From Yeosuana sp. (lineage in GTDB: Bacteria; Bacteroidota; Bacteroidia; Flavobacteriales; Flavobacteriaceae): a stretch of 64,000 nucleotides of DNA. Location: contig DATCZQ010000184.1 of NCBI GenBank assembly GCA_036525815.1, positions 39,803 through 103,802 on the forward strand, in the 5' to 3' direction. The notes below the pieces were generated by a model. It did not search any database. It saw only the letters and a program-made list of their open reading frames with translations, and was not told the DNA's origin. Below are positions 43,219 to 53,159 of the stretch, piece after piece. Made by a program: the position numbers and the translations under genes. The first letter of the stretch is position 1; every line of letters begins with the position of its first letter.

Positions 43219-43632
43219 ATGCTATCTAAAAAAACAAAATATGGTTTAAAAGCGATTACCTATCTTGCAAGACAAGAAGGCAATAAGCCTGTGCAAGTAG
43301 GTGAAATTGCTAAAAATGAGCAAATTCCGCAGAAATTTTTAGAGAGCATTTTATTGACCTTAAGAAAGTCAGGATGCTTAGGATCAAAAAAGGGAAAACA
43401 TGGCGGATATTATCTTATCAAAAAACCTTCAGAGATTAATATGGCCGATGTGATGCGTGTTCTTGAAGGGCCCATTGCCATGGTACCCTGTGTGAGTTTG
43501 AATTTCTATGAAAAGTGTGATGACTGTCCTGATGAGAACAAGTGTAGTGTCAATAAATTGATGATTCAGGTTAGAGATAATACACTTGAAGTCCTTCGAA
43601 ATACTACACTGGAAGATTTGTCTACTATATAA
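43219..43632 (+). CDS. Rrf2-family transcriptional regulator with a four-Cys C-terminal motif
   Basis: SKKTKYGL, IPQKFLESIL, GKHGGYYL; C-x8-C-x2-C-x5-C. Confidence 0.93.
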   Translation: MLSKKTKYGLKAITYLARQEGNKPVQVGEIAKNEQIPQKFLESILLTLRKSGCLGSKKGKHGGYYLIKKPSEINMADVMRVLEGPIAMVPCVSLNFYEKCDDCPDENKCSVNKLMIQVRDNTLEVLRNTTLEDLSTI

Positions 43633-43799: not shown

Positions 43800-44063
43800 A
43801 TGATAGGACACGTTTTAACTAATTCAGGAGAAAAAGAAAAGTCATCATATAAAATTGATGTAGCAACAGAAAAACCTTTTAGAAGTATAGCCAAGTCAGT
43901 TAGCTGGAGAATTGTTGGGACTGTAGATACCATTTTAATATCCTGGTTTATTACTGGGCAGTTAGAATTGGCTTTTTCTATAGGTTCCATAGAACTGGTT
44001 ACGAAAATGATTTTATATTTTTTTCATGAGCGTATATGGAATACAATTAAATGGGGTAGATAA
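43800..44063 (+). CDS. DUF2061 small membrane protein
   Basis: RSIAKSVSWRIVGTVDT ... YFFHERIW. Confidence 0.85.
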   Translation: MIGHVLTNSGEKEKSSYKIDVATEKPFRSIAKSVSWRIVGTVDTILISWFITGQLELAFSIGSIELVTKMILYFFHERIWNTIKWGR

Positions 44064-44074
44064 TACAATTTATT

Positions 44075-44695
44075 ATGATTACAAAAGAGCAATTAATTGA
44101 ATTGAATCTTCTTTATAAAGAAGCGAAGCCATCCGATATTATTAAAAAAGCATTTGAATTTAGTCATGAGGCCGTTGTAACTACTAATTTCAGGCCTTAT
44201 GAAGTGGCTATTTTACATGCCGTTAATCTGGTAAAATCAAATGTTGATGTGGTTTGGTGTGATACCGGCTATAATACCCCACAAACGTATAGACATGCCA
44301 ATGAAGTTATTGAAAAGTTACAATTAATAGTCTCCTTATATGTACCACAGCAAACAGCAGCTTATAGAGATGTTGTGATGGGAATTCCTAATGTTGACGA
44401 TCCAAAACACGCCTTATTTACTGAGCAAGTAAAATTAGAACCGTTTAGGAGAGCTATGGAAATTCATAAACCTAAAGTATGGTTCACAAACTTGCGTAAA
44501 GGTCAAACAGCATTTAGAGACAGCATTGGAATATTTAGTATGAGTAAAGACAAAGTTTTAAAAGTGAGTCCGTTTTACTATTGGTCAGACACTGATTTAG
44601 ATGCTTATTTAGAAGAGTATAATCTACCTAATGAGTTTAAATATTTTGATCCAACTAAGGCATTAGAAAACAGAGAGTGTGGTTTACATTCTTGA
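44075..44695 (+). CDS. cysH: sulfonucleotide (PAPS/APS) reductase without Fe-S ligands
   Basis: DTGY, KLEPF, LRKGQ, C-terminal ECGLH; no CC..CxxC motif. Confidence 0.88.
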   Translation: MITKEQLIELNLLYKEAKPSDIIKKAFEFSHEAVVTTNFRPYEVAILHAVNLVKSNVDVVWCDTGYNTPQTYRHANEVIEKLQLIVSLYVPQQTAAYRDVVMGIPNVDDPKHALFTEQVKLEPFRRAMEIHKPKVWFTNLRKGQTAFRDSIGIFSMSKDKVLKVSPFYYWSDTDLDAYLEEYNLPNEFKYFDPTKALENRECGLHS

Positions 44696-44715
44696 AGTAA
44701 TTGAAAATTAATAAA

Positions 44716-45618
44716 ATGAATAAAGATACATCACATATTAATTCACTTGAAAACGAGGCCATATATATTATGCGGGAAGTGGCGGCTCAATTTGATAAGC
44801 CAGTACTGCTTTTTTCTGGAGGAAAGGATTCAATTACCCTGGTAAGACTGGCTGTAAAAGCGTTTTATCCGGCGAAAGTACCATTTCCATTAATGCATAT
44901 TGATACCGGGCATAATTTTCCTGAAACTATTGAATTTAGGGATAAATTGGTAAAGGAATTAGATTTAGAATTAATAGTCAGGAACGTTCAGGATTCCATT
45001 GATGAAGGCAGAGTGAAAGAAGAATCAGGTAGATATTCAAGTAGAAACTCATTGCAGACCACTACACTTCTGGATGCTATTGAAGAGTTTAAGTTTGACG
45101 CCTGTATTGGTGGTGCACGACGTGATGAGGAAAAAGCCAGAGCTAAAGAAAGAATTTTTTCTGTAAGAGATGATTTTGGGCAATGGGATGAGAAAAATCA
45201 ACGTCCGGAATTGTTTGATATGTTAAATGGAGACATTGAACATGGTCAGAACGTTCGAGTATTTCCTATTTCAAACTGGACAGAATTAGATGTCTGGTCC
45301 TATATTGAAAAGGAAAAAATTGAGATACCCTCTATTTATTTTGCACATAAACGAAAAGTGTTTTTACGTGACGGATTGATTTGGTCTCATTCTGAATATG
45401 TATACCAGGAAGAAGATGAAAAGGTTTTAGAACGTATGGTTAGATTTAGAACGGTTGGTGACATGAGTTGTACGGCTGCAGTTTTTTCGGAAGCTGCTGA
45501 TATCACTAGTGTAGTACAAGAAATTAGAGAGTCTACTATATCAGAACGTGGAGCCAGAATAGATGATAAACGTTCGGAGGCCGCTATGGAAAAACGTAAA
45601 CAACAAGGCTATTTCTAA
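44716..45618 (+). CDS. cysD: sulfate adenylyltransferase subunit 2
   Basis: LFSGGKDS, GGARRDEEKARAKER, RFRTVGD; ATG at 44716 (in-frame TTG at 44701). Confidence 0.96.
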   Translation: MNKDTSHINSLENEAIYIMREVAAQFDKPVLLFSGGKDSITLVRLAVKAFYPAKVPFPLMHIDTGHNFPETIEFRDKLVKELDLELIVRNVQDSIDEGRVKEESGRYSSRNSLQTTTLLDAIEEFKFDACIGGARRDEEKARAKERIFSVRDDFGQWDEKNQRPELFDMLNGDIEHGQNVRVFPISNWTELDVWSYIEKEKIEIPSIYFAHKRKVFLRDGLIWSHSEYVYQEEDEKVLERMVRFRTVGDMSCTAAVFSEAADITSVVQEIRESTISERGARIDDKRSEAAMEKRKQQGYF

Positions 45619-45664
45619 AATATTTAATAAAAAAACTCCTTCTTCTAGAAGGTTCATATAAAAA

Positions 45665-46912
45665 ATGGAAGTATTAAAAATTGCAACGGCTGGAAGTGTG
45701 GATGATGGTAAAAGTACCTTGATTGGACGTATACTTTATGATACCAAATCATTAACTACCGATAAGTTAGAAGCCATTGAAAAAACCAGTAAACAAAAAG
45801 GCTATGATTATCTTGATTTTTCATTAGCAACGGATGGTCTAGTGGCTGAAAGAGAGCAAGGAATTACTATTGATGTGGCTCACATCTATTTTTCAACGGC
45901 TAAAAAAAGTTATATTATTGCAGATACTCCAGGACATGTCGAATATACACGGAATATGGTGACTGGAGCTTCAACATCACAAGCCTCTATTATTTTAATT
46001 GATGCCAGAAAGGGCGTGATTGAACAAACCAACCGTCATTTCTTCATCAATAATTTATTGCGAATTAAGGATATTGTAGTCGCTATTAACAAAATGGATT
46101 TAGTAGATTATTCTGAAGACATTTATAACAAAATTAAAACCGATTTTGAGTCCTTAATGAGCAAGAGAGATTATCAGGATCAAAAAATTACCTTTATTCC
46201 GGTGAGTGCTTTAAAGGGAGACAATGTAGTGAACAGATCTGATAAGATGCCCTGGTTTACAGGACAAAGTTTATTGGAACATTTAGAAGCATTAGACAAG
46301 AAAGACATATTTAATGTTGGGACGCCAAGATTCCCGGTGCAATATGTTATACGTCCTAAAACTGAAGACTTTCATGATTTTAGGGGCTATGCCGGTAAAG
46401 TGTATGGTGGTGAATTAAGTGTAGGTGATGATATTGTGGTTTTACCATCACAAACAAAATCAAAAATAAAAGATATATACTTTTATAATGAAAAATATCA
46501 AACGGCTTCAAGACGCTCATCAGTGACTATCACCTTAGAAAATGACATCAATGTTAGCAGAGGCGATATGATTGTTAAGGATGGAGATTTACCAACTATA
46601 GATAAACAATTTACGGCCAATATTTGCTGGATGGATGCTACGCAATTAACTACAAGCGGTAAATATATAGTACAACATGGCGTGAATAAAGTCTTAGCGA
46701 AAGTTGATAAAATTCATTATAAAATCAATCCTGACTATTCAGGAATTGAAACCGATGTTACAGGGCTGAATGTAAATGATATTGCTCAGGTAACCTTCAA
46801 ATTAAACAAGCCTATTTTTTATGACCAGTTTAAAAACCATAGAACCAATGGCTCGTTTATTTTAATTGATACACAAACAAATAACACTGTTGGAGCAGGG
46901 TTTATTCAATAG
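45665..46912 (+). CDS. cysN: sulfate adenylyltransferase subunit 1 (GTPase), no APS-kinase domain
   Basis: GSVDDGKSTLIG, REQGITID, DTPGH, NKMD; 415 aa. Confidence 0.96.
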   Translation: MEVLKIATAGSVDDGKSTLIGRILYDTKSLTTDKLEAIEKTSKQKGYDYLDFSLATDGLVAEREQGITIDVAHIYFSTAKKSYIIADTPGHVEYTRNMVTGASTSQASIILIDARKGVIEQTNRHFFINNLLRIKDIVVAINKMDLVDYSEDIYNKIKTDFESLMSKRDYQDQKITFIPVSALKGDNVVNRSDKMPWFTGQSLLEHLEALDKKDIFNVGTPRFPVQYVIRPKTEDFHDFRGYAGKVYGGELSVGDDIVVLPSQTKSKIKDIYFYNEKYQTASRRSSVTITLENDINVSRGDMIVKDGDLPTIDKQFTANICWMDATQLTTSGKYIVQHGVNKVLAKVDKIHYKINPDYSGIETDVTGLNVNDIAQVTFKLNKPIFYDQFKNHRTNGSFILIDTQTNNTVGAGFIQ

Positions 46913-46961: not shown

Positions 46962-49073
46962 ATGCAAAGTTTTAGAACGGAAATAGAAAATCCTATTATC
47001 GAAAAGGATATTATTGAATTAGCTCAAAAAATTGAGTTGTTCAATACAGGTAAAATTGATGAAGAAAAATTCAGAAGTCTTCGTTTGGCGCGGGGTGTTT
47101 ATGGTCAGCGCCAAGAAGGTGTTCAGATGATTCGTATCAAATTACCTTTCGGAAAAGTCTTAAGTCATCAATTGCGAAGAATAGCCGATGTTTCAGACGA
47201 ATATTCTCGTGGAAGATTGCATATCACGACACGTCAGGATATCCAAATTCATCATGTCGATTTAAACAGTACACCACAACTTTGGGCGGATTTAGAAAAG
47301 GATGAAGTCACCTTAAGAGAAGCTTGTGGGAATACGGTTAGAAATGTCACAGCATCCGAAACTGCAGGCATCGATATTAAGGAGCCTTTTGATGTATCGC
47401 CTTATGCGGAGGCCGTTTTCAAATTCTTTTTAAGAAATCCCATATGCCAGGAAATGGGAAGAAAGTTTAAAGTGTCATTCTCATCATCAGATGAAGATAC
47501 CGGACTTTCATACATGCATGATTTGGGTTTTATTGCTAAAATTGAAAAGGGCGAACGGGGTTTTAAAGTGATGCTTGGTGGTGGATTGGGTTCGCAACCA
47601 CGTCATGCCGACGAGTTATATGAATTTTTGCCTTCAGATAAAATTATTCCGGTCATGGAAGGTGTTTTAAGGATTTTTGATCGTCATGGAGAACGCAGAA
47701 GCAGAGCAAAGGCCAGAATAAAATTCTTAATAAAAGACATTAGTTTAGAAGCTTTTAAGACATTAGTAGAAGCAGAACAAAAGGCCATTGAATTTAAATC
47801 AGTACCAATTGATTTTGAATCTTACCAGCCTTCTATACCAGTTACAGTAACTGCACCAAAAGTTCAGATTATTGACCATAAGGCATATGAAACTTGGAAA
47901 GCAACAAATCTCATCCCTCAAAAGCAAGAAGGTTATGTTGCCATTGGAGTAAAAGTGTTATTAGGAGATTTTTATACAGATAAAGCAAGACTGTTGGCTG
48001 ATTTGGTGGAAAAATATGCGGCTGGAGAAATTCGATTAACCTTGAGACAAAATATTTTAATACCATTTGTGAAGGAAGAGTTGGTACCATTTTTTTACTC
48101 TGAATTAGATAAACTGGGTTTTGCTGAAGCGGGTTATAATAAAGCAGTAGACATTACGGCTTGCCCGGGTACAGATACCTGTAACTTAGGAATTGCCAGT
48201 AGTACCGGGATTGCCGCAGAATTAGAGCGGGTTATTAAAACCGAATATCCACAGTATTTAGAAAATAAGGATTTAGTTATAAAAATTAGTGGTTGTATGA
48301 ATGCCTGTGGGCAGCATACTATGGCCAACATTGGGTTTCAGGGTATGTCAGTTCGTACACCGGATAAATTAGTTGCTCCGGCATTGCAGGTGTTATTAGG
48401 GGGAGGTAATCTGGGTGATGGAAACGGTTTGTTTGCTGATAAAGTTGTGAAAATTCCCAGCAGAAGAGGTCCGGAAGCTTTACGCAAAATTTTAAATGAT
48501 TTTGAAGCCAATGCACAAGGTAAAACCTTTGTTGAGTATTATAAACTTACCGGAGAACGTTACTTCTATGACTTATTAAATGAGTTACAAGATGTAACAA
48601 ATCTTACCCAACAAGATTTTATAGATTGGGGAACCTCCGAAAAATATGAAAAAGCTATTGGTGTTGGGGAATGCGCTGGTGTGGTCATCGATTTGATTTC
48701 AACTTTATTCTTAGAAAGTGAAGAAAAAATTGAAGAGGCAAAATCCTCTTTTGAGGATAAAGTTTATTCTAGCGCCATTTATCATGCGTATAGTTCCATG
48801 GTCAATTCGGCCAAAGCACTGTTGTTAGCTGAAAATATAAGCACGAATACTCAAGCCAACATTATCAGTCAGTTTGATGACACTTTTGTGTCAAGTGGAA
48901 AACTAGATTTAGGAGTTCCTTTTTCAGAGATGATTTACCAAATAAAAGAATATGCTCCTACAGGAGCTTTTGCATTTAAATACATTGAAAATGCAAATCA
49001 TTTTTTAAATAATGTAAAAGCTTTTAGGACGAAAGAACAAGAAAGTAATAGTGGTAAAAGGCATATTATTTAA
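46962..49073 (+). CDS. ferredoxin-type siroheme sulfite/nitrite reductase with a C-terminal HEPN-like domain
   Basis: GVYGQRQ, HITTRQDIQ, REACGNTVRN, Fe-S/siroheme ligands ACPGTDTC and SGCMNACG; extra helical C-terminal domain. Confidence 0.9.
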   Translation: MQSFRTEIENPIIEKDIIELAQKIELFNTGKIDEEKFRSLRLARGVYGQRQEGVQMIRIKLPFGKVLSHQLRRIADVSDEYSRGRLHITTRQDIQIHHVDLNSTPQLWADLEKDEVTLREACGNTVRNVTASETAGIDIKEPFDVSPYAEAVFKFFLRNPICQEMGRKFKVSFSSSDEDTGLSYMHDLGFIAKIEKGERGFKVMLGGGLGSQPRHADELYEFLPSDKIIPVMEGVLRIFDRHGERRSRAKARIKFLIKDISLEAFKTLVEAEQKAIEFKSVPIDFESYQPSIPVTVTAPKVQIIDHKAYETWKATNLIPQKQEGYVAIGVKVLLGDFYTDKARLLADLVEKYAAGEIRLTLRQNILIPFVKEELVPFFYSELDKLGFAEAGYNKAVDITACPGTDTCNLGIASSTGIAAELERVIKTEYPQYLENKDLVIKISGCMNACGQHTMANIGFQGMSVRTPDKLVAPALQVLLGGGNLGDGNGLFADKVVKIPSRRGPEALRKILNDFEANAQGKTFVEYYKLTGERYFYDLLNELQDVTNLTQQDFIDWGTSEKYEKAIGVGECAGVVIDLISTLFLESEEKIEEAKSSFEDKVYSSAIYHAYSSMVNSAKALLLAENISTNTQANIISQFDDTFVSSGKLDLGVPFSEMIYQIKEYAPTGAFAFKYIENANHFLNNVKAFRTKEQESNSGKRHII

Positions 49074-49081
49074 TTTTTTAT

Positions 49082-49861
49082 ATGGAGTTAATTACTAAAA
49101 CACCCATGTTAACAGTTGTTGGTGCGGGGCCAGGAGATCCGGATCTGATGACACTTAAAGCCATAAAAGCTATTGAATCTGCTGATGTCATTTTGTATGA
49201 TGCCCTTATTAATGAAGAGTTACTTAAATACGCGTCGCCTAATACAGAAATAATTTTTGTTGGAAAGCGAAAAGGATGTTATGCTTTTCAGCAGGAACAA
49301 ATTAATGAACTTATTGTGAGCAGAGCAAAAAGTCATGGTCATGTGGTTAGACTAAAAGGGGGTGATCCCTTTATTTTTGGTAGAGGTGCTGAAGAAATTG
49401 ATTATGCCCAGCAATTTGATGTTGAAACCTATATGGTTCCCGGTATTTCATCATCGTTTGCCGTCCCGGCTTATCAAGGTATTCCATTGACCAAGAGAGA
49501 TGCGTCAGAAAGTTTTTGGGTGCTTACTGGGACTACTCAATTTCATGAACTATCAAAAGATATTGTTTTAGCTGCGCAATCAACAGCCACGGTGGTCATT
49601 CTAATGGGTATGGGGAAATTGAATGAAATTGTTGACATCTATAAATCTTTAGGAAAATATGATACTTCGGTTGCCATTATCCAAAATGGAACTACTAAAA
49701 AGGAAAAAGTTGGGTATGGTAAGATTAAAAACATACTTCAGGTCGTTGAAGAAAAACAATTATCCTCACCTGCTATTATCATAATAGGGGATGTTGTAAA
49801 TAAAAGAGTAGCTTTATCGTCTATGATTCATGATCATAAAAATAAATCCATTGCGGTTTAA
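49082..49861 (+). CDS. cobA: uroporphyrinogen-III C-methyltransferase
   Basis: VGAGPGDPDL, VVRLKGGDPFIFGRGAEE, VPGISS. Confidence 0.94.
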   Translation: MELITKTPMLTVVGAGPGDPDLMTLKAIKAIESADVILYDALINEELLKYASPNTEIIFVGKRKGCYAFQQEQINELIVSRAKSHGHVVRLKGGDPFIFGRGAEEIDYAQQFDVETYMVPGISSSFAVPAYQGIPLTKRDASESFWVLTGTTQFHELSKDIVLAAQSTATVVILMGMGKLNEIVDIYKSLGKYDTSVAIIQNGTTKKEKVGYGKIKNILQVVEEKQLSSPAIIIIGDVVNKRVALSSMIHDHKNKSIAV

Positions 49862-49864
49862 GGA

Positions 49865-50458
49865 ATGGAAAGAAATAATTTATACCCGGTTTTTTTAAAA
49901 CTCAACAATTTAAAAGTACTTATTGTAGGAGGCGGTTTTGTTGCGGAAGAAAAACTTACCTTTCTTTTAAAGTCAAGTCCAGATGCACATATAACACTGG
50001 TGTCTCCTATGTTTAGAGAAGGCACTTTGGATTTAGTTAAAAAAGGAGATATAACTTTGATACATGACGTTTATAGCAAAAAATATTTAAAAGGAAATCA
50101 TATAGTTATTGCAACTACCAATGTTCCTGAAGTCAATGTAAAAATATATAAACACTGTAGGAAGAGAGGTGTTTTGGTAAATGTGGCCGATAATCCTCCT
50201 TTTTGTGATTTTTATATGGGTGGAATCGTTACAAAAGGTAATGTAAAAGTGGCAATTTCGACTAACGGAAAGTCACCGACAACGGCCAAAAGATTACGTC
50301 AGTTTTTTGAAGATGTGATTCCAGAGAATGTGGATGATTTGGTTAAAAATTTAAATGACTATAGAAAAACAATTAAAGGTGATTTTGAACAGAAAGTAGA
50401 TGCTTTAAACGAATTCACTAAAGGATTAATTGCAAGAAAAGAAGATCAATATGATTAA
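49865..50458 (+). CDS. precorrin-2 dehydrogenase/sirohydrochlorin ferrochelatase (CysG N-terminal type)
   Basis: VGGGFVAEEK, VNVADNP..CDF, AISTNGKSP. Confidence 0.9.
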   Translation: MERNNLYPVFLKLNNLKVLIVGGGFVAEEKLTFLLKSSPDAHITLVSPMFREGTLDLVKKGDITLIHDVYSKKYLKGNHIVIATTNVPEVNVKIYKHCRKRGVLVNVADNPPFCDFYMGGIVTKGNVKVAISTNGKSPTTAKRLRQFFEDVIPENVDDLVKNLNDYRKTIKGDFEQKVDALNEFTKGLIARKEDQYD

Positions 50459-51503
50459 AACAGATATACTAATTATTGGCGCAGGACCAACGGGATTATT
50501 TACCGTTTTTGAAGCAGGATTATTAAAATTAAAATGTCATATAATTGATGCTTTACCACAACCTGGAGGTCAATGTTCTGAGATATATCCTAAAAAACCC
50601 ATTTATGATATTCCGGGATTTCCAGAAATATTGGCTGGTGATTTAACAAAAAATCTTTTAGAACAAGGAAAACAATTTGAGCCAGGTTTTACACTCGGAG
50701 AGCGCGCTGAAACCATCGAAAAGTTGGAAGACGAAACATTTATAGTAACTACCAACAAAGGGACCCAACATCATGCGCCGGTAGTGGCAATTGCAGGTGG
50801 CTTAGGCTCTTTTGAGCCCAGAAAGCCATTAATTGAAAATATAGCTTATTATGAAGAAAAGGGAGTAGAGTATTTTATAAAAGATCCTGAAGTTTATAGA
50901 AATAAAAAAGTAGTTATTTCTGGAGGTGGTGATTCGGCATTGGATTGGAGTATCTTTTTAGCTGATATGGCTTCTGAAGTGACGCTGATTCATAGAAGGA
51001 ATGAGTTTAGAGGCGCCTTAGATTCTGTAGAGAAAGTAAGCAAATTAAAGGCTTTAGGTAAGATTAACCTCATTACGCCCGCTGAGGTAACGGCCTTATA
51101 TGGGAATAAGAAGTTAGAAGGTATTACTATTACCAAAGAGGATGAAAAGATCTTATTAGATACAGATTATTTTATCCCTTTATTCGGTTTATCTCCAAAA
51201 TTAGGTCCTATTGCTAATTGGGGGTTAGAGATAGAAAAAAATGCCATTAAAGTTGATCATACTTTAAATTATCAAACCAATATACCTGGTATTTTTGCTA
51301 TTGGAGATGTCAATACGTATCCTGAAAAACTAAAATTAATTCTCTGTGGATTTCATGAAGCAACCTTAATGTGTCAAGCGGCCTATAGAATTATCAATCC
51401 TGGAAAAAAGTATGTTTTAAAATATACGACCGTAAGTGGAGTTGATGGTTTTGACGGAACTCGTAAAGAAGCCCCAAAAGTTGTCATTCAATCAATAAAA
51501 TAA
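50451..51503 (+). CDS. ferredoxin--NADP reductase, thioredoxin-reductase-like (YumC type)
   Basis: GAGPTGL, YPKKPIYDIPG, GGGDSALDW, HRR, FAIGD; no CxxC redox pair; ATG at 50451. Confidence 0.85.
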   Translation: MIKTDILIIGAGPTGLFTVFEAGLLKLKCHIIDALPQPGGQCSEIYPKKPIYDIPGFPEILAGDLTKNLLEQGKQFEPGFTLGERAETIEKLEDETFIVTTNKGTQHHAPVVAIAGGLGSFEPRKPLIENIAYYEEKGVEYFIKDPEVYRNKKVVISGGGDSALDWSIFLADMASEVTLIHRRNEFRGALDSVEKVSKLKALGKINLITPAEVTALYGNKKLEGITITKEDEKILLDTDYFIPLFGLSPKLGPIANWGLEIEKNAIKVDHTLNYQTNIPGIFAIGDVNTYPEKLKLILCGFHEATLMCQAAYRIINPGKKYVLKYTTVSGVDGFDGTRKEAPKVVIQSIK

Positions 51504-51547: not shown

Positions 51548-52282
51548 ATGAAAAATTACAATATACGCTTAAAAGAGGATATAAAACCATTTACAAAACG
51601 CTTGTTTTATAACCTGTTTGATGAATTGGAAGAAGAAACTAAATATTTAAAAAATACTTTTTTAGAAATTTCATCAAAACTGTCTGTTGAAAACGCTGAA
51701 AATTTATGGGATGCGTTCCAAAAGCAGTTTTTAACCATAAGAAGGAAACTAGATTTAGATGCAGCCTCCTTTTTGAAAAATGATCCGGCTTCCACCTGTA
51801 TTGAAGAAGTTTATTTGGCATATCCGGGATTTTATGCCATTTCAATATACAGATTAAGTCATCAACTACATCTTTTAAAAGTCCCAATCATTCCAAGAAT
51901 GATGAGTGAATATGTGCATGGGATTACGGGGATTGATATCCATCCAGGCGCCACAATTGGGGAATCTTTTTTTGTTGACCATGGTACAGGTATTGTAATA
52001 GGTGAAACATCTGTTATCAAAAGTAATGTGAAGATATTTCAAGGAGTTACCCTTGGTGGTCTTCAGGTTAAAAAAGATATGCAGTCTACCAAACGTCATC
52101 CCACTATTGAAGATCATGTCACCATTTATGCTAACGCTACAATTTTAGGTGGCGATATTGTCATAGGTGCCAACAGTACCATAGGAGCCAATGTGTGGAT
52201 TACACAATCTGTTCCTGAAAACTCATTAGTTACCTACCAAACAGAAATTAAAATAAGACTCAAAAAAAATGGAATCCATTAA
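51548..52282 (+). CDS. cysE: serine O-acetyltransferase
   Basis: DPAS, YPGFYA, IDIHPGATIG, DHGTGIVIGET, KRHPTI. Confidence 0.93.
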   Translation: MKNYNIRLKEDIKPFTKRLFYNLFDELEEETKYLKNTFLEISSKLSVENAENLWDAFQKQFLTIRRKLDLDAASFLKNDPASTCIEEVYLAYPGFYAISIYRLSHQLHLLKVPIIPRMMSEYVHGITGIDIHPGATIGESFFVDHGTGIVIGETSVIKSNVKIFQGVTLGGLQVKKDMQSTKRHPTIEDHVTIYANATILGGDIVIGANSTIGANVWITQSVPENSLVTYQTEIKIRLKKNGIH

Positions 52283-53159
52283 AGGCATCTTAAGTCAAAT
52301 AGGAAATACCCCGCTAGTAGAAGCAAGTCATTTAATATCAAAAAAAGGGGTCAAGCTTTTTTTAAAATTAGAGGGGAATAATCCGGGCGGGAGTGTTAAG
52401 GATAGAGCGGCCTTTAATATGATTAACGAGGCGATTAAAAGAGGTGATATTAAAAAAGGAGGCTATCTGGTGGAGGCAACAAGTGGGAATACAGGTATTG
52501 CTTTAGCTTTTATTGCCAATCTTTTTGGGTTGAATATGATTCTTGTGATGCCTGAAAATTCTACTGAAGAACGTGTCAAAACAATGCGTGCTTATGGAGC
52601 CGAAGTTATTTTAACTTCAGGGGAAAAGGGCATTGAAGGCTCTAGAGATTTGGCCTTTCAATTAAGAGATGAAAAAGGATATACACTGTTGAATCAGTTT
52701 GAAAATCACGACAACTGGAGAGCACATTATAAAACTACTGGGCCGGAAATCTGGAAAGATACCAATGGAAAAATAACACATTTTGTTTCCGCCATGGGTA
52801 CTACTGGAACTATTATGGGTGTTTCTACTTATTTGAAGGAACAAAACAGAAATATTATTATTGTTGGAGCTCAACCAGAAGATGGTGCTAAAATTCCTGG
52901 TATCAGAAAATGGTCACCAGATTACATTCCTAAGTTTTTTGATAGGTCAAAAGTGGATAAGATCATAGAATTGAGTGAAATGGATGCTAAGGAGACAACA
53001 AAAAGGCTTGCTAGAGAAGAGGGGATTTTTGCAGGGATGAGTAGTGGAGGGTCCGTTTATAGTGCCTTACAAATAGCCGAATCAATTGAGAAAGGGGTAA
53101 TTGTCGCCATAATTTGTGATAGAGGTGACAGGTATTTATCGTCTGATTTATTTGATTAA
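52269..53159 (+). CDS. cysM: cysteine synthase B
   Basis: IGNTPL, NPGGSVKDR, ATSGNTGI, MGTTGT, IPGIRKW. Confidence 0.9.
   Translation: MESIKGILSQIGNTPLVEASHLISKKGVKLFLKLEGNNPGGSVKDRAAFNMINEAIKRGDIKKGGYLVEATSGNTGIALAFIANLFGLNMILVMPENSTEERVKTMRAYGAEVILTSGEKGIEGSRDLAFQLRDEKGYTLLNQFENHDNWRAHYKTTGPEIWKDTNGKITHFVSAMGTTGTIMGVSTYLKEQNRNIIIVGAQPEDGAKIPGIRKWSPDYIPKFFDRSKVDKIIELSEMDAKETTKRLAREEGIFAGMSSGGSVYSALQIAESIEKGVIVAIICDRGDRYLSSDLFD

Follow-up and report, generated by a model that had tools for sequence, protein, structure and literature searches.

A predicted APS reductase devoid of an iron-sulfur cluster in the sulfate assimilation operon of Yeosuana sp. and other Flavobacteriaceae

Background

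The subject of this work is cysH, the gene of a sulfonucleotide reductase located in a stretch of 64,000 nucleotides from Yeosuana sp. (Flavobacteriaceae; contig DATCZQ010000184.1 of assembly GCA_036525815.1), the whole of which is referred to below as the window. Enzymes of this family use either adenosine 5'-phosphosulfate (APS) or 3'-phosphoadenosine 5'-phosphosulfate (PAPS), the latter being supplied by the APS kinase CysC. In reviews of the field the iron-sulfur cluster is considered the mark of APS use, the exception being APR-B of mosses and algae (PMC2275785, PMC11350084). The APR-B of Physcomitrella patens (structure 4bwv) is a cluster-free APS reductase whose use of APS is demonstrated (Kopriva et al. 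2007 and Stevenson et al. 2013, cited in PMC2275785 and PMC11350084). According to the review of 2024, PAPS reductases occur in two groups, the gamma-proteobacteria and the cyanobacteria (PMC11350084), and neither review lists a bacterial APS reductase that has no cluster. The paper on the structure of the Mycobacterium tuberculosis APS reductase contains no discussion of substrate discrimination.

A second body of work bears on sulfate use without the kinase. Blattabacterium, an endosymbiont of the class Flavobacteria, is devoid of cysC, and the presence of the symbiont has been tied to the incorporation of sulfate into cysteine and methionine. The corresponding papers report the kinase step as missing and deem the pathway likely to work (PMC3590773, PMC2768785). 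By analogy, this physiology may count in favour of sulfate assimilation in other genomes devoid of cysC; the comparison is made through the absence of cysC, not through the form of CysH.

A preliminary description of the window, made from its letters, had proposed that its CysH is a bacterial enzyme that uses APS without a cluster. Comparative genomics supports this proposal through four independent lines: the absence of cysC and cysQ from the whole genome, the distribution of two forms of CysH with respect to cysC, the presence of an acidic residue in the P-loop, and the possession by the operon of its own cysDN genes. On these sequence-based grounds the enzyme is very likely a cluster-free bacterial APS reductase, which would derive from a PAPS reductase through two substitutions in the loop and the association with a dedicated cysDN.

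Sequence and fold of CysH

The features on which the argument is built are the following (type A is defined further below).

44075..44695, + strand: cysH, cluster-free sulfonucleotide reductase of type A, predicted APS reductase (PF01507, E 3.6e-19)
44180..44203, + strand: codons for the P-loop TTNFRPYE (residues 36-43 of CysH), which includes the two diagnostic residues, Arg40 and Glu43; all 74 type A genomes have this same loop
44678..44680, + strand: codon for Cys202, the catalytic residue, within the C-terminal motif ECGLH; none of the 101 family sequences departs from R200, E201, C202, G203 or H205
44701..45618, + strand: cysD, small subunit of ATP sulfurylase, the only cysD of the genome (NF003587, E 6e-136)
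45665..46912, + strand: cysN, GTPase subunit of ATP sulfurylase, without APS-kinase domain (TIGR02034 over its full length, E 1.8e-148)

CysH is a single-domain protein of 206 amino acids, without thioredoxin domain. As stated in the preliminary description, the translation contains only two cysteines, one within WCDTG (C62) and the other within ECGLH (C202), and its P-loop (residues 36-43) reads TTNFRPYE. The cluster motif CC...CxxC of iron-sulfur APS reductases is not present, FT being found in place of the CC pair. PF01507 (PAPS_reduct) recognizes the protein with 69.9 bits for a cut-off of 22.5. The scores remain under the cut-offs of the PAPS-reductase models (NF002537, 103.3 vs 154; TIGR00434, 80.9 vs 165.1; TIGR02057, 86 vs 254.2) as well as under that of the iron-sulfur APS-reductase model (TIGR02055, 47.3 bits vs 235.3). 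D63-T64 of the DTG motif, K120, R141, R148 and the RECG.H motif are invariant in the alignment of the 101 family members; the role of the C-terminal ECGLH motif has been described (PMC8173546).

The position of the loop residues relative to solved enzymes was examined by HMMER pairwise alignments. The same earlier description had aligned the glutamate with Asp66 of the Pseudomonas aeruginosa APS reductase and with an alanine of the Escherichia coli PAPS reductase, and the computed alignments give precisely these correspondences: Glu43 faces Ala57 of the E. coli enzyme (SSSFGIQA, chain numbering of 1sur), Asp66 of the P. aeruginosa enzyme (SFSGAED, 2goy) and the aspartate of "IAGDVV" in moss APR-B (4bwv). 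It also faces an alanine in the Vibrio PAPS reductase and a glycine in the Candida enzyme. Arg40 stands where the P-loop glycine is found (Gly54 in E. coli, Gly63 in P. aeruginosa). In the loop of PAPS reductases this glycine is combined with a residue that is small and neutral (SSSFGxxA or TTAFGLTG); the window's CysH has Arg40 and Glu43 at the two positions. In the yeast PAPS reductase, this loop and the helix end hold the 3'-phosphate of 3'-phosphoadenosine 5'-phosphate (PAP), a phosphate that the acidic residues of APS reductases presumably disfavour.

Iron-sulfur forms of CysH also occur in the family. Those of three cysC-less Flavobacteriaceae genomes read G-x-E-D at the same place of the loop. 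Another iron-sulfur-type CysH (CC...CxxC, about 230 amino acids), present in some genera of the family, has the loop LTSSFAATSAF, with no acidic residue; it was observed at loci L120, L121 and L125 (genomes G052, G010 and G007), two of these genomes having cysC and one not.

An AlphaFold2 model of CysH, from which secondary structure and confidence were derived, has a mean predicted local distance difference test (pLDDT) score of 89.5. It places the P-loop between a strand (33-36) and a helix (41-53), so that Arg40 closes the loop and Glu43 belongs to the first turn of this helix. With this model Foldseek matched all solved CysH-type reductases with probability 1.00. By fold, two gamma-proteobacterial PAPS reductases, 6vpu and 1sur, come closest (template modelling score, TM, of about 0.8), before fungal PAPS reductases, APR-B and iron-sulfur APS reductases (TM about 0.7-0.75).

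APS kinase and CysQ

The window's genome is 99.99% complete. The absence of cysC, reported at first for the gene cluster, holds there and extends to the whole genome, where no PF01583 match was obtained at E<=0.001; as a control, the same search matched 11 of 14 genomes. No TIGR01331 match, the signature of the PAP phosphatase CysQ, was found in the window's genome either. Only two genes with a PAPS_reduct domain are present in it, namely cysD and cysH. The kinase domain is also lacking from CysN, again as first described: this protein of 415 amino acids matches TIGR02034 over positions 1-406 of 406, and it covers positions 23-431 of the 632-position bifunctional CysN/kinase model NF004035, the kinase part of which is uncovered.

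PAPS could still be the substrate if the cysC-less genomes possessed an unrecognised APS kinase, not homologous to CysC. The absence of cysC indeed relies on one Pfam model, and weak matches of P-loop kinases to PF01583 were seen in some other genomes. However, the window's genome gives zero matches under the threshold used, and CysQ, which is needed for the removal of PAP, is gone as well. We regard such a hidden kinase as highly improbable.

Two forms of CysH in Flavobacteriaceae

The distribution of CysH was analyzed in a sample of 151 genomes, in which the window's genome is joined by 150 other Flavobacteriaceae genera, each represented by a single genome. Each genome was searched for cluster-free CysH, APS kinase and CysQ, and the CysH genes were fetched and aligned. 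A cluster-free ortholog is present in 100 of the 151 genomes (99 other genera and the window's), and two forms of it can be told apart. In type A, found in 74 genomes, 45 without cysC and 29 with it, the loop is TTNFRPYE without exception. Type B, whose loop FG.[YH][SA] is like the SSSFGIQA of E. coli, is found in 26 genomes, none of which is devoid of cysC. Every cysC-less genome with a cluster-free CysH (45 cases) has therefore the TTNFRPYE loop, and the association between CysH form and cysC has a Fisher p of 5e-9 when relatedness is ignored. Only two columns of the alignment (101 sequences) fully separate the types: column 40 (Arg vs Gly) and column 43 (Glu vs Ser/Ala). Type B is predicted to be a true PAPS reductase. 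No description of the two loop forms was found in a literature search that left subscription journals mostly outside its scope.

The frequency of cysC is 39% in genomes with type A, compared to 55% in genomes without cluster-free CysH (p = 0.10). The kinase gene thus looks unlinked to type A, and obligatory for type B. The fate of cysQ is similar to that of cysC: the two genes lie 1-4 kb from each other and are present together in 82 genomes, and cysQ is also gone in 44 of the 45 cysC-less type A genomes. Their pairing is near-perfect; exceptions are G103 (type A, cysQ without cysC) and G023 (cysC without cysQ), and three further genomes (G002, G070 and G077) have cysQ but no cysC.

These counts bear on a second explanation, according to which the window's CysH is an ordinary cluster-free PAPS reductase, and the sulfate pathway is incomplete in the cysC-less genomes, the window's among them, reduced sulfur being what these organisms live on. 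The nearest solved relatives of CysH are PAPS reductases, it has no cluster cysteines, and two papers call cysC-less clusters incomplete, in Kordia (PMC7477175) and in Muricauda (PMC10301316). However, the operon Rrf2-cysH-cysDN-sir-cobA-sirC-cysE-cysK is intact, with conserved proteins, in the cysC-less genomes examined in detail, and the invariance of the loop in 74/74 type A genomes argues for selection. Moreover the Gly/Ser loop never occurs without cysC, so that the loss of the kinase is tolerated only with TTNFRPYE, and cysQ has disappeared too. We consider this explanation quite unlikely.

The occurrence of the type A loop was also examined with an exact search of the TTNFRPYE DNA motif in 400 Bacteroidota genomes. 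The motif was found in 7 of the 28 Flavobacteriaceae genomes and in none of the other 372; an exact pattern misses variants like STNFRPYE or STNFRPQE, so the type A form is not thereby confined to Flavobacteriaceae. A CysH relative that fits neither type A nor type B was observed in Aureicoccus marinus and 11 metagenomic members (P0126 / P0276): its loop reads TTNFKPYS (Lys40, Ser43), and it ends with RECGIQF instead of ECG(L/I)H.

Operon structure

The two types also differ by the organization of their operons. In type A loci cysH is followed by cysD-cysN (11/11 examined), whereas in type B loci it is directly followed by sir, with no adjoining cysDN (10/10 examined). The cysDN genes of type B genomes belong to a separate module, cysQ-DUF2061-cysC-cysD-cysN (6/6 loci, DUF2061 being undetected in one). 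Five complete type B genomes have one cysD each, which sits in this cysC module; their sulfate activation is tied to the kinase, as the PAPS route predicts. Type A genomes that keep cysC have cysC-cysQ alone, without cysDN, in 4/5 cases, the fifth genome having both cysDN sets, and the single cysD of the lone-cysC type A genomes is the one of the cysH operon. Identity between the CysD of the window and those of other type A operons amounts to 68-91% (mostly 82-91%), compared to about 60% with the CysD of the PAPS module. Operon structure hence gives a signal independent of the loop sequence, and this signal supports APS use by type A.

The type A genomes that keep cysC are at the origin of the main rival explanation, namely a dual specificity for APS and PAPS. 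The loop change would then have widened the substrate range and not switched it. Such an enzyme has a precedent in the bispecific CysH of Bacillus subtilis (PMC1175818). Besides, 29/74 type A genomes keep cysC, some of them with a whole second PAPS module, and Arg40 could still touch a phosphate. However, the 39% of cysC among type A genomes is no higher than the 55% quoted above, so nothing links the retained cysC to assimilation; the isolated cysC-cysQ pairs would fit a role in sulfation, and Glu43 matches the acidic residue of APS-specific enzymes. We consider dual specificity unlikely, although it is the alternative that deserves most attention.

Phylogeny of the two types

In a tree rooted with the E. 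coli CysH, type A forms one clade (support of 96 in the Shimodaira-Hasegawa-like approximate likelihood ratio test, SH-aLRT), nested among type B sequences. When the loop columns were removed, the monophyly of type A was not rejected on an unrooted tree (approximately unbiased, AU, test, p = 0.48). In the best loop-free tree, two type B sequences adjoin type A, both of which read TTNFGPYS; this loop differs from TTNFRPYE by exactly the two diagnostic substitutions. Type A is thus probably a single lineage derived from type B. The state of cysC changes 23 times inside type A by parsimony, with at least 3 changes forced by well-supported branches, and not at all inside type B.

Relatives outside Flavobacteriaceae

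A profile-free search of 1.8 billion representative proteins yielded 34 clusters at E<=1e-30, several of which have NFRPxE loops and an identity of 40-46% with the window's CysH. One of these comes from metagenome-assembled genomes (MAGs) of Lentisphaeria, where an Rrf2-cysH-cysD-cysN operon is present, with the CysH loop STNFRPQE. A metagenomic protein of 652 amino acids (P0129, L119:1837-3795) consists of a complete CysN fused to a cluster-free CysH of the Glu43 type, with the loop TTNFGPQE. Its gene is located directly 3' of cysD, it has no kinase domain, and its CysH occupies the place where CysNC proteins have the kinase. The organization of this fusion fits a direct hand-over of APS from one part of the protein to the other. 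A search for longer, fused relatives by a word index gave none at E<=1e-20; it also missed the CysN-CysH fusion itself, so that this negative carries little weight.

Proposed mechanism and origin

The sequence features and their distribution, the operon structures and the lack of cysC and cysQ are observations; from them we infer which substrate the enzyme prefers, what Arg40 and Glu43 do and in which direction evolution went. CysH, as a thioredoxin-type sulfonucleotide reductase, would take APS straight from the CysDN encoded by the neighbouring genes, without any iron-sulfur cluster. Cys202 of the ECGLH motif would attack the sulfate of APS, with release of AMP and formation of an enzyme thiosulfonate, which a thiol reductant would resolve to give sulfite. 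Sulfite would then be reduced by Sir to sulfide, to be used by CysK and MetZ/MetY. The ancestor would be a cluster-free PAPS reductase, in which the coupled replacements Gly40->Arg and Ser/Ala43->Glu remodelled the 3'-phosphate site. Glu43 would put a negative charge where APS reductases have an aspartate; Arg40 probably pairs with Glu43, or adds binding energy for the 5'-phosphosulfate. The presence of cysDN in the operon itself would have made the PAPS module (cysQ-cysC, with or without cysDN) dispensable for assimilation, and this module would since have been lost in about 60% of the genera with type A, including the window's genome.

Several points weigh against this interpretation. All the evidence for the predicted activity of the type A clade is genomic. 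The window's CysH is closer to PAPS reductases than to any APS reductase, in sequence and in fold (1sur, E 3.7e-17, TM about 0.8). The retention of cysC by 29 type A genomes leaves room for PAPS use or dual specificity, and the arginine of the loop could in principle bind a phosphate instead of excluding one. The pairing of Arg40 with Glu43 is a guess, the model lacking side-chain contacts. The CysN-CysH fusion is known from a single metagenomic contig of 4 kb. As to the phylogeny, the gene tree is poorly resolved, with 51 of its 99 inner branches open, and a very long branch leads to the E. coli root; the E. coli-rooted tree deprived of loop columns was unstable, and was replaced by the unrooted tree with its AU test. 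The direction from PAPS to APS is for these reasons likely, but not secure. Finally, type A probably arose once, so that the genomes are not independent with respect to the association between type and cysC, which relies on one transition and repeated later losses.

A broader version of the proposal is that Gly40->Arg and Ser43->Glu turn a cluster-free PAPS reductase into an APS reductase, independently of moss APR-B, and that they define a large clade (about half of the sampled Flavobacteriaceae genera), with related NFRPxE forms known from Lentisphaeria as well as a CysN-CysH fusion that occurs naturally. We advance it tentatively, and place its chances slightly short of even.

The sulfur gene cluster

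The genes of the cluster are arranged in the order metY, metX-AK-HSD (metX fused to aspartokinase-homoserine dehydrogenase), metZ, Rrf2, DUF2061, cysH, cysD, cysN, sir, cobA, sirC, a gene for a reductase like ferredoxin-NADP reductase (FNR), cysE, cysK and the start of metH. Those that surround cysHDN are the following.

43219..43632, + strand: Rrf2-family regulator heading the cys operon (TIGR00738 Rrf2 superfamily, E 8e-36)
43800..44063, + strand: DUF2061 small membrane protein of 87 amino acids, 11 nucleotides 5' of cysH (Pfam PF09834, E 2.4e-24)
46962..49073, + strand: sir, siroheme sulfite reductase of the NirA/ferredoxin type (NF007126, E 5.5e-69; NF007125, E 1.6e-64)
49082..50458, + strand: cobA and sirC, siroheme synthesis (TIGR01469, E 2.8e-79; TIGR01470, E 4.9e-36)
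50430..51503, + strand: flavoprotein like thioredoxin reductase (TIGR01292, E 3.9e-43, far under the cut-off)
51548..53159, + strand: cysE-like gene and cysK, putative serine acetyltransferase and cysteine synthase (hexapeptide-repeat and PALP domains)

An Rrf2 gene is present upstream of cysH in 18/20 related loci, of types A and B, and in the Lentisphaeria MAGs as well. The DUF2061 gene precedes cysH in 10/10 type A loci, against 3/10 type B loci. A second context of DUF2061 was observed, between cysQ and cysC in most PAPS modules of other genera; this family is thus linked with sulfate activation in two distinct settings. We considered, and rejected, that the operon might hide a cryptic kinase, all genes being otherwise assigned except DUF2061, which is also found in cysC-containing modules. 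The flavoprotein gene overlaps the end of sirC, and related operons keep the flavoprotein at 76-92% identity; it is probably the ferredoxin-NADP reductase that supplies the NirA-type Sir. The assignment of cysE and cysK is suggested by the context. Named close relatives of the CysH belong to Flavobacteriaceae such as Gaetbulibacter, Yeosuana and Flavivirga.

Significance

If the proposal is true, a bacterial clade has dropped the kinase step without recourse to a cluster, and constitutes a second, independent exception beside APR-B; a major group of marine bacteria would then break the rule that a cluster is required for APS use. About half of the sampled genera would have a complete sulfate pathway, cheaper by one ATP, which would bear on the modelling of sulfur demand in abundant marine heterotrophs. 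Since two residues are diagnostic between sister enzymes, the determinants of APS and PAPS use can be tested by swapping both, and natural type A / type B pairs offer a direct and minimal test of substrate choice. One may speculate that a cluster-free APS route, which would save the iron of the cluster and the ATP of the kinase, is of relevance in iron-poor seawater.

Comparison with known systems

APR-B and the window's CysH are alike in having neither cluster cysteines nor fused thioredoxin domain, and in the acidic residue found at the same position of the P-loop. The match between them is limited to 33.6 bits (E 2.8e-7, about 23% identity, TM 0.71), compared to 65.8 bits for the E. coli PAPS reductase. 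Unlike CysH, APR-B has no arginine at position 40, the rest of its loop differs, and it is a eukaryotic enzyme (plants, algae) and not a bacterial one. Judged by pairwise scores, CysH falls outside the APR-B clade: the likeness looks functional, with an origin that appears independent and convergent.

The PAPS reductases of E. coli and Vibrio (1sur, 2o8v, 6vpu) are the closest solved relatives (E 3.7e-17, TM about 0.8). Like CysH they have no cluster, and they possess its DTG motif and Arg loop as well as the catalytic ECGLH tail. The differences concern the P-loop, SSSFGIQA instead of TTNFRPYE, and the C-terminal tail, which is about 40 residues shorter in CysH. In addition, no cysC is present in the window's genome to provide PAPS.

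The iron-sulfur APS reductases, represented by the structures 2goy (P. aeruginosa) and 7lhr (M. tuberculosis), have the substrate that is predicted for CysH, an acidic residue at the same position of the loop, and likewise make cysC dispensable. A thioredoxin-dependent thiosulfonate mechanism is shared with them (PMC1175818). They differ from CysH by their [4Fe-4S] cluster, and match it weakly (E 1.6e-4).

The type B CysH of other Flavobacteriaceae resembles that of the window by its length, fold family and catalytic residues, and by an Rrf2-headed operon with sir and cobA (38-57% identity). It differs by Gly40 and Ser/Ala43, by the lack of adjoining cysDN genes, and by its constant association with the cysQ-cysC-cysDN module.

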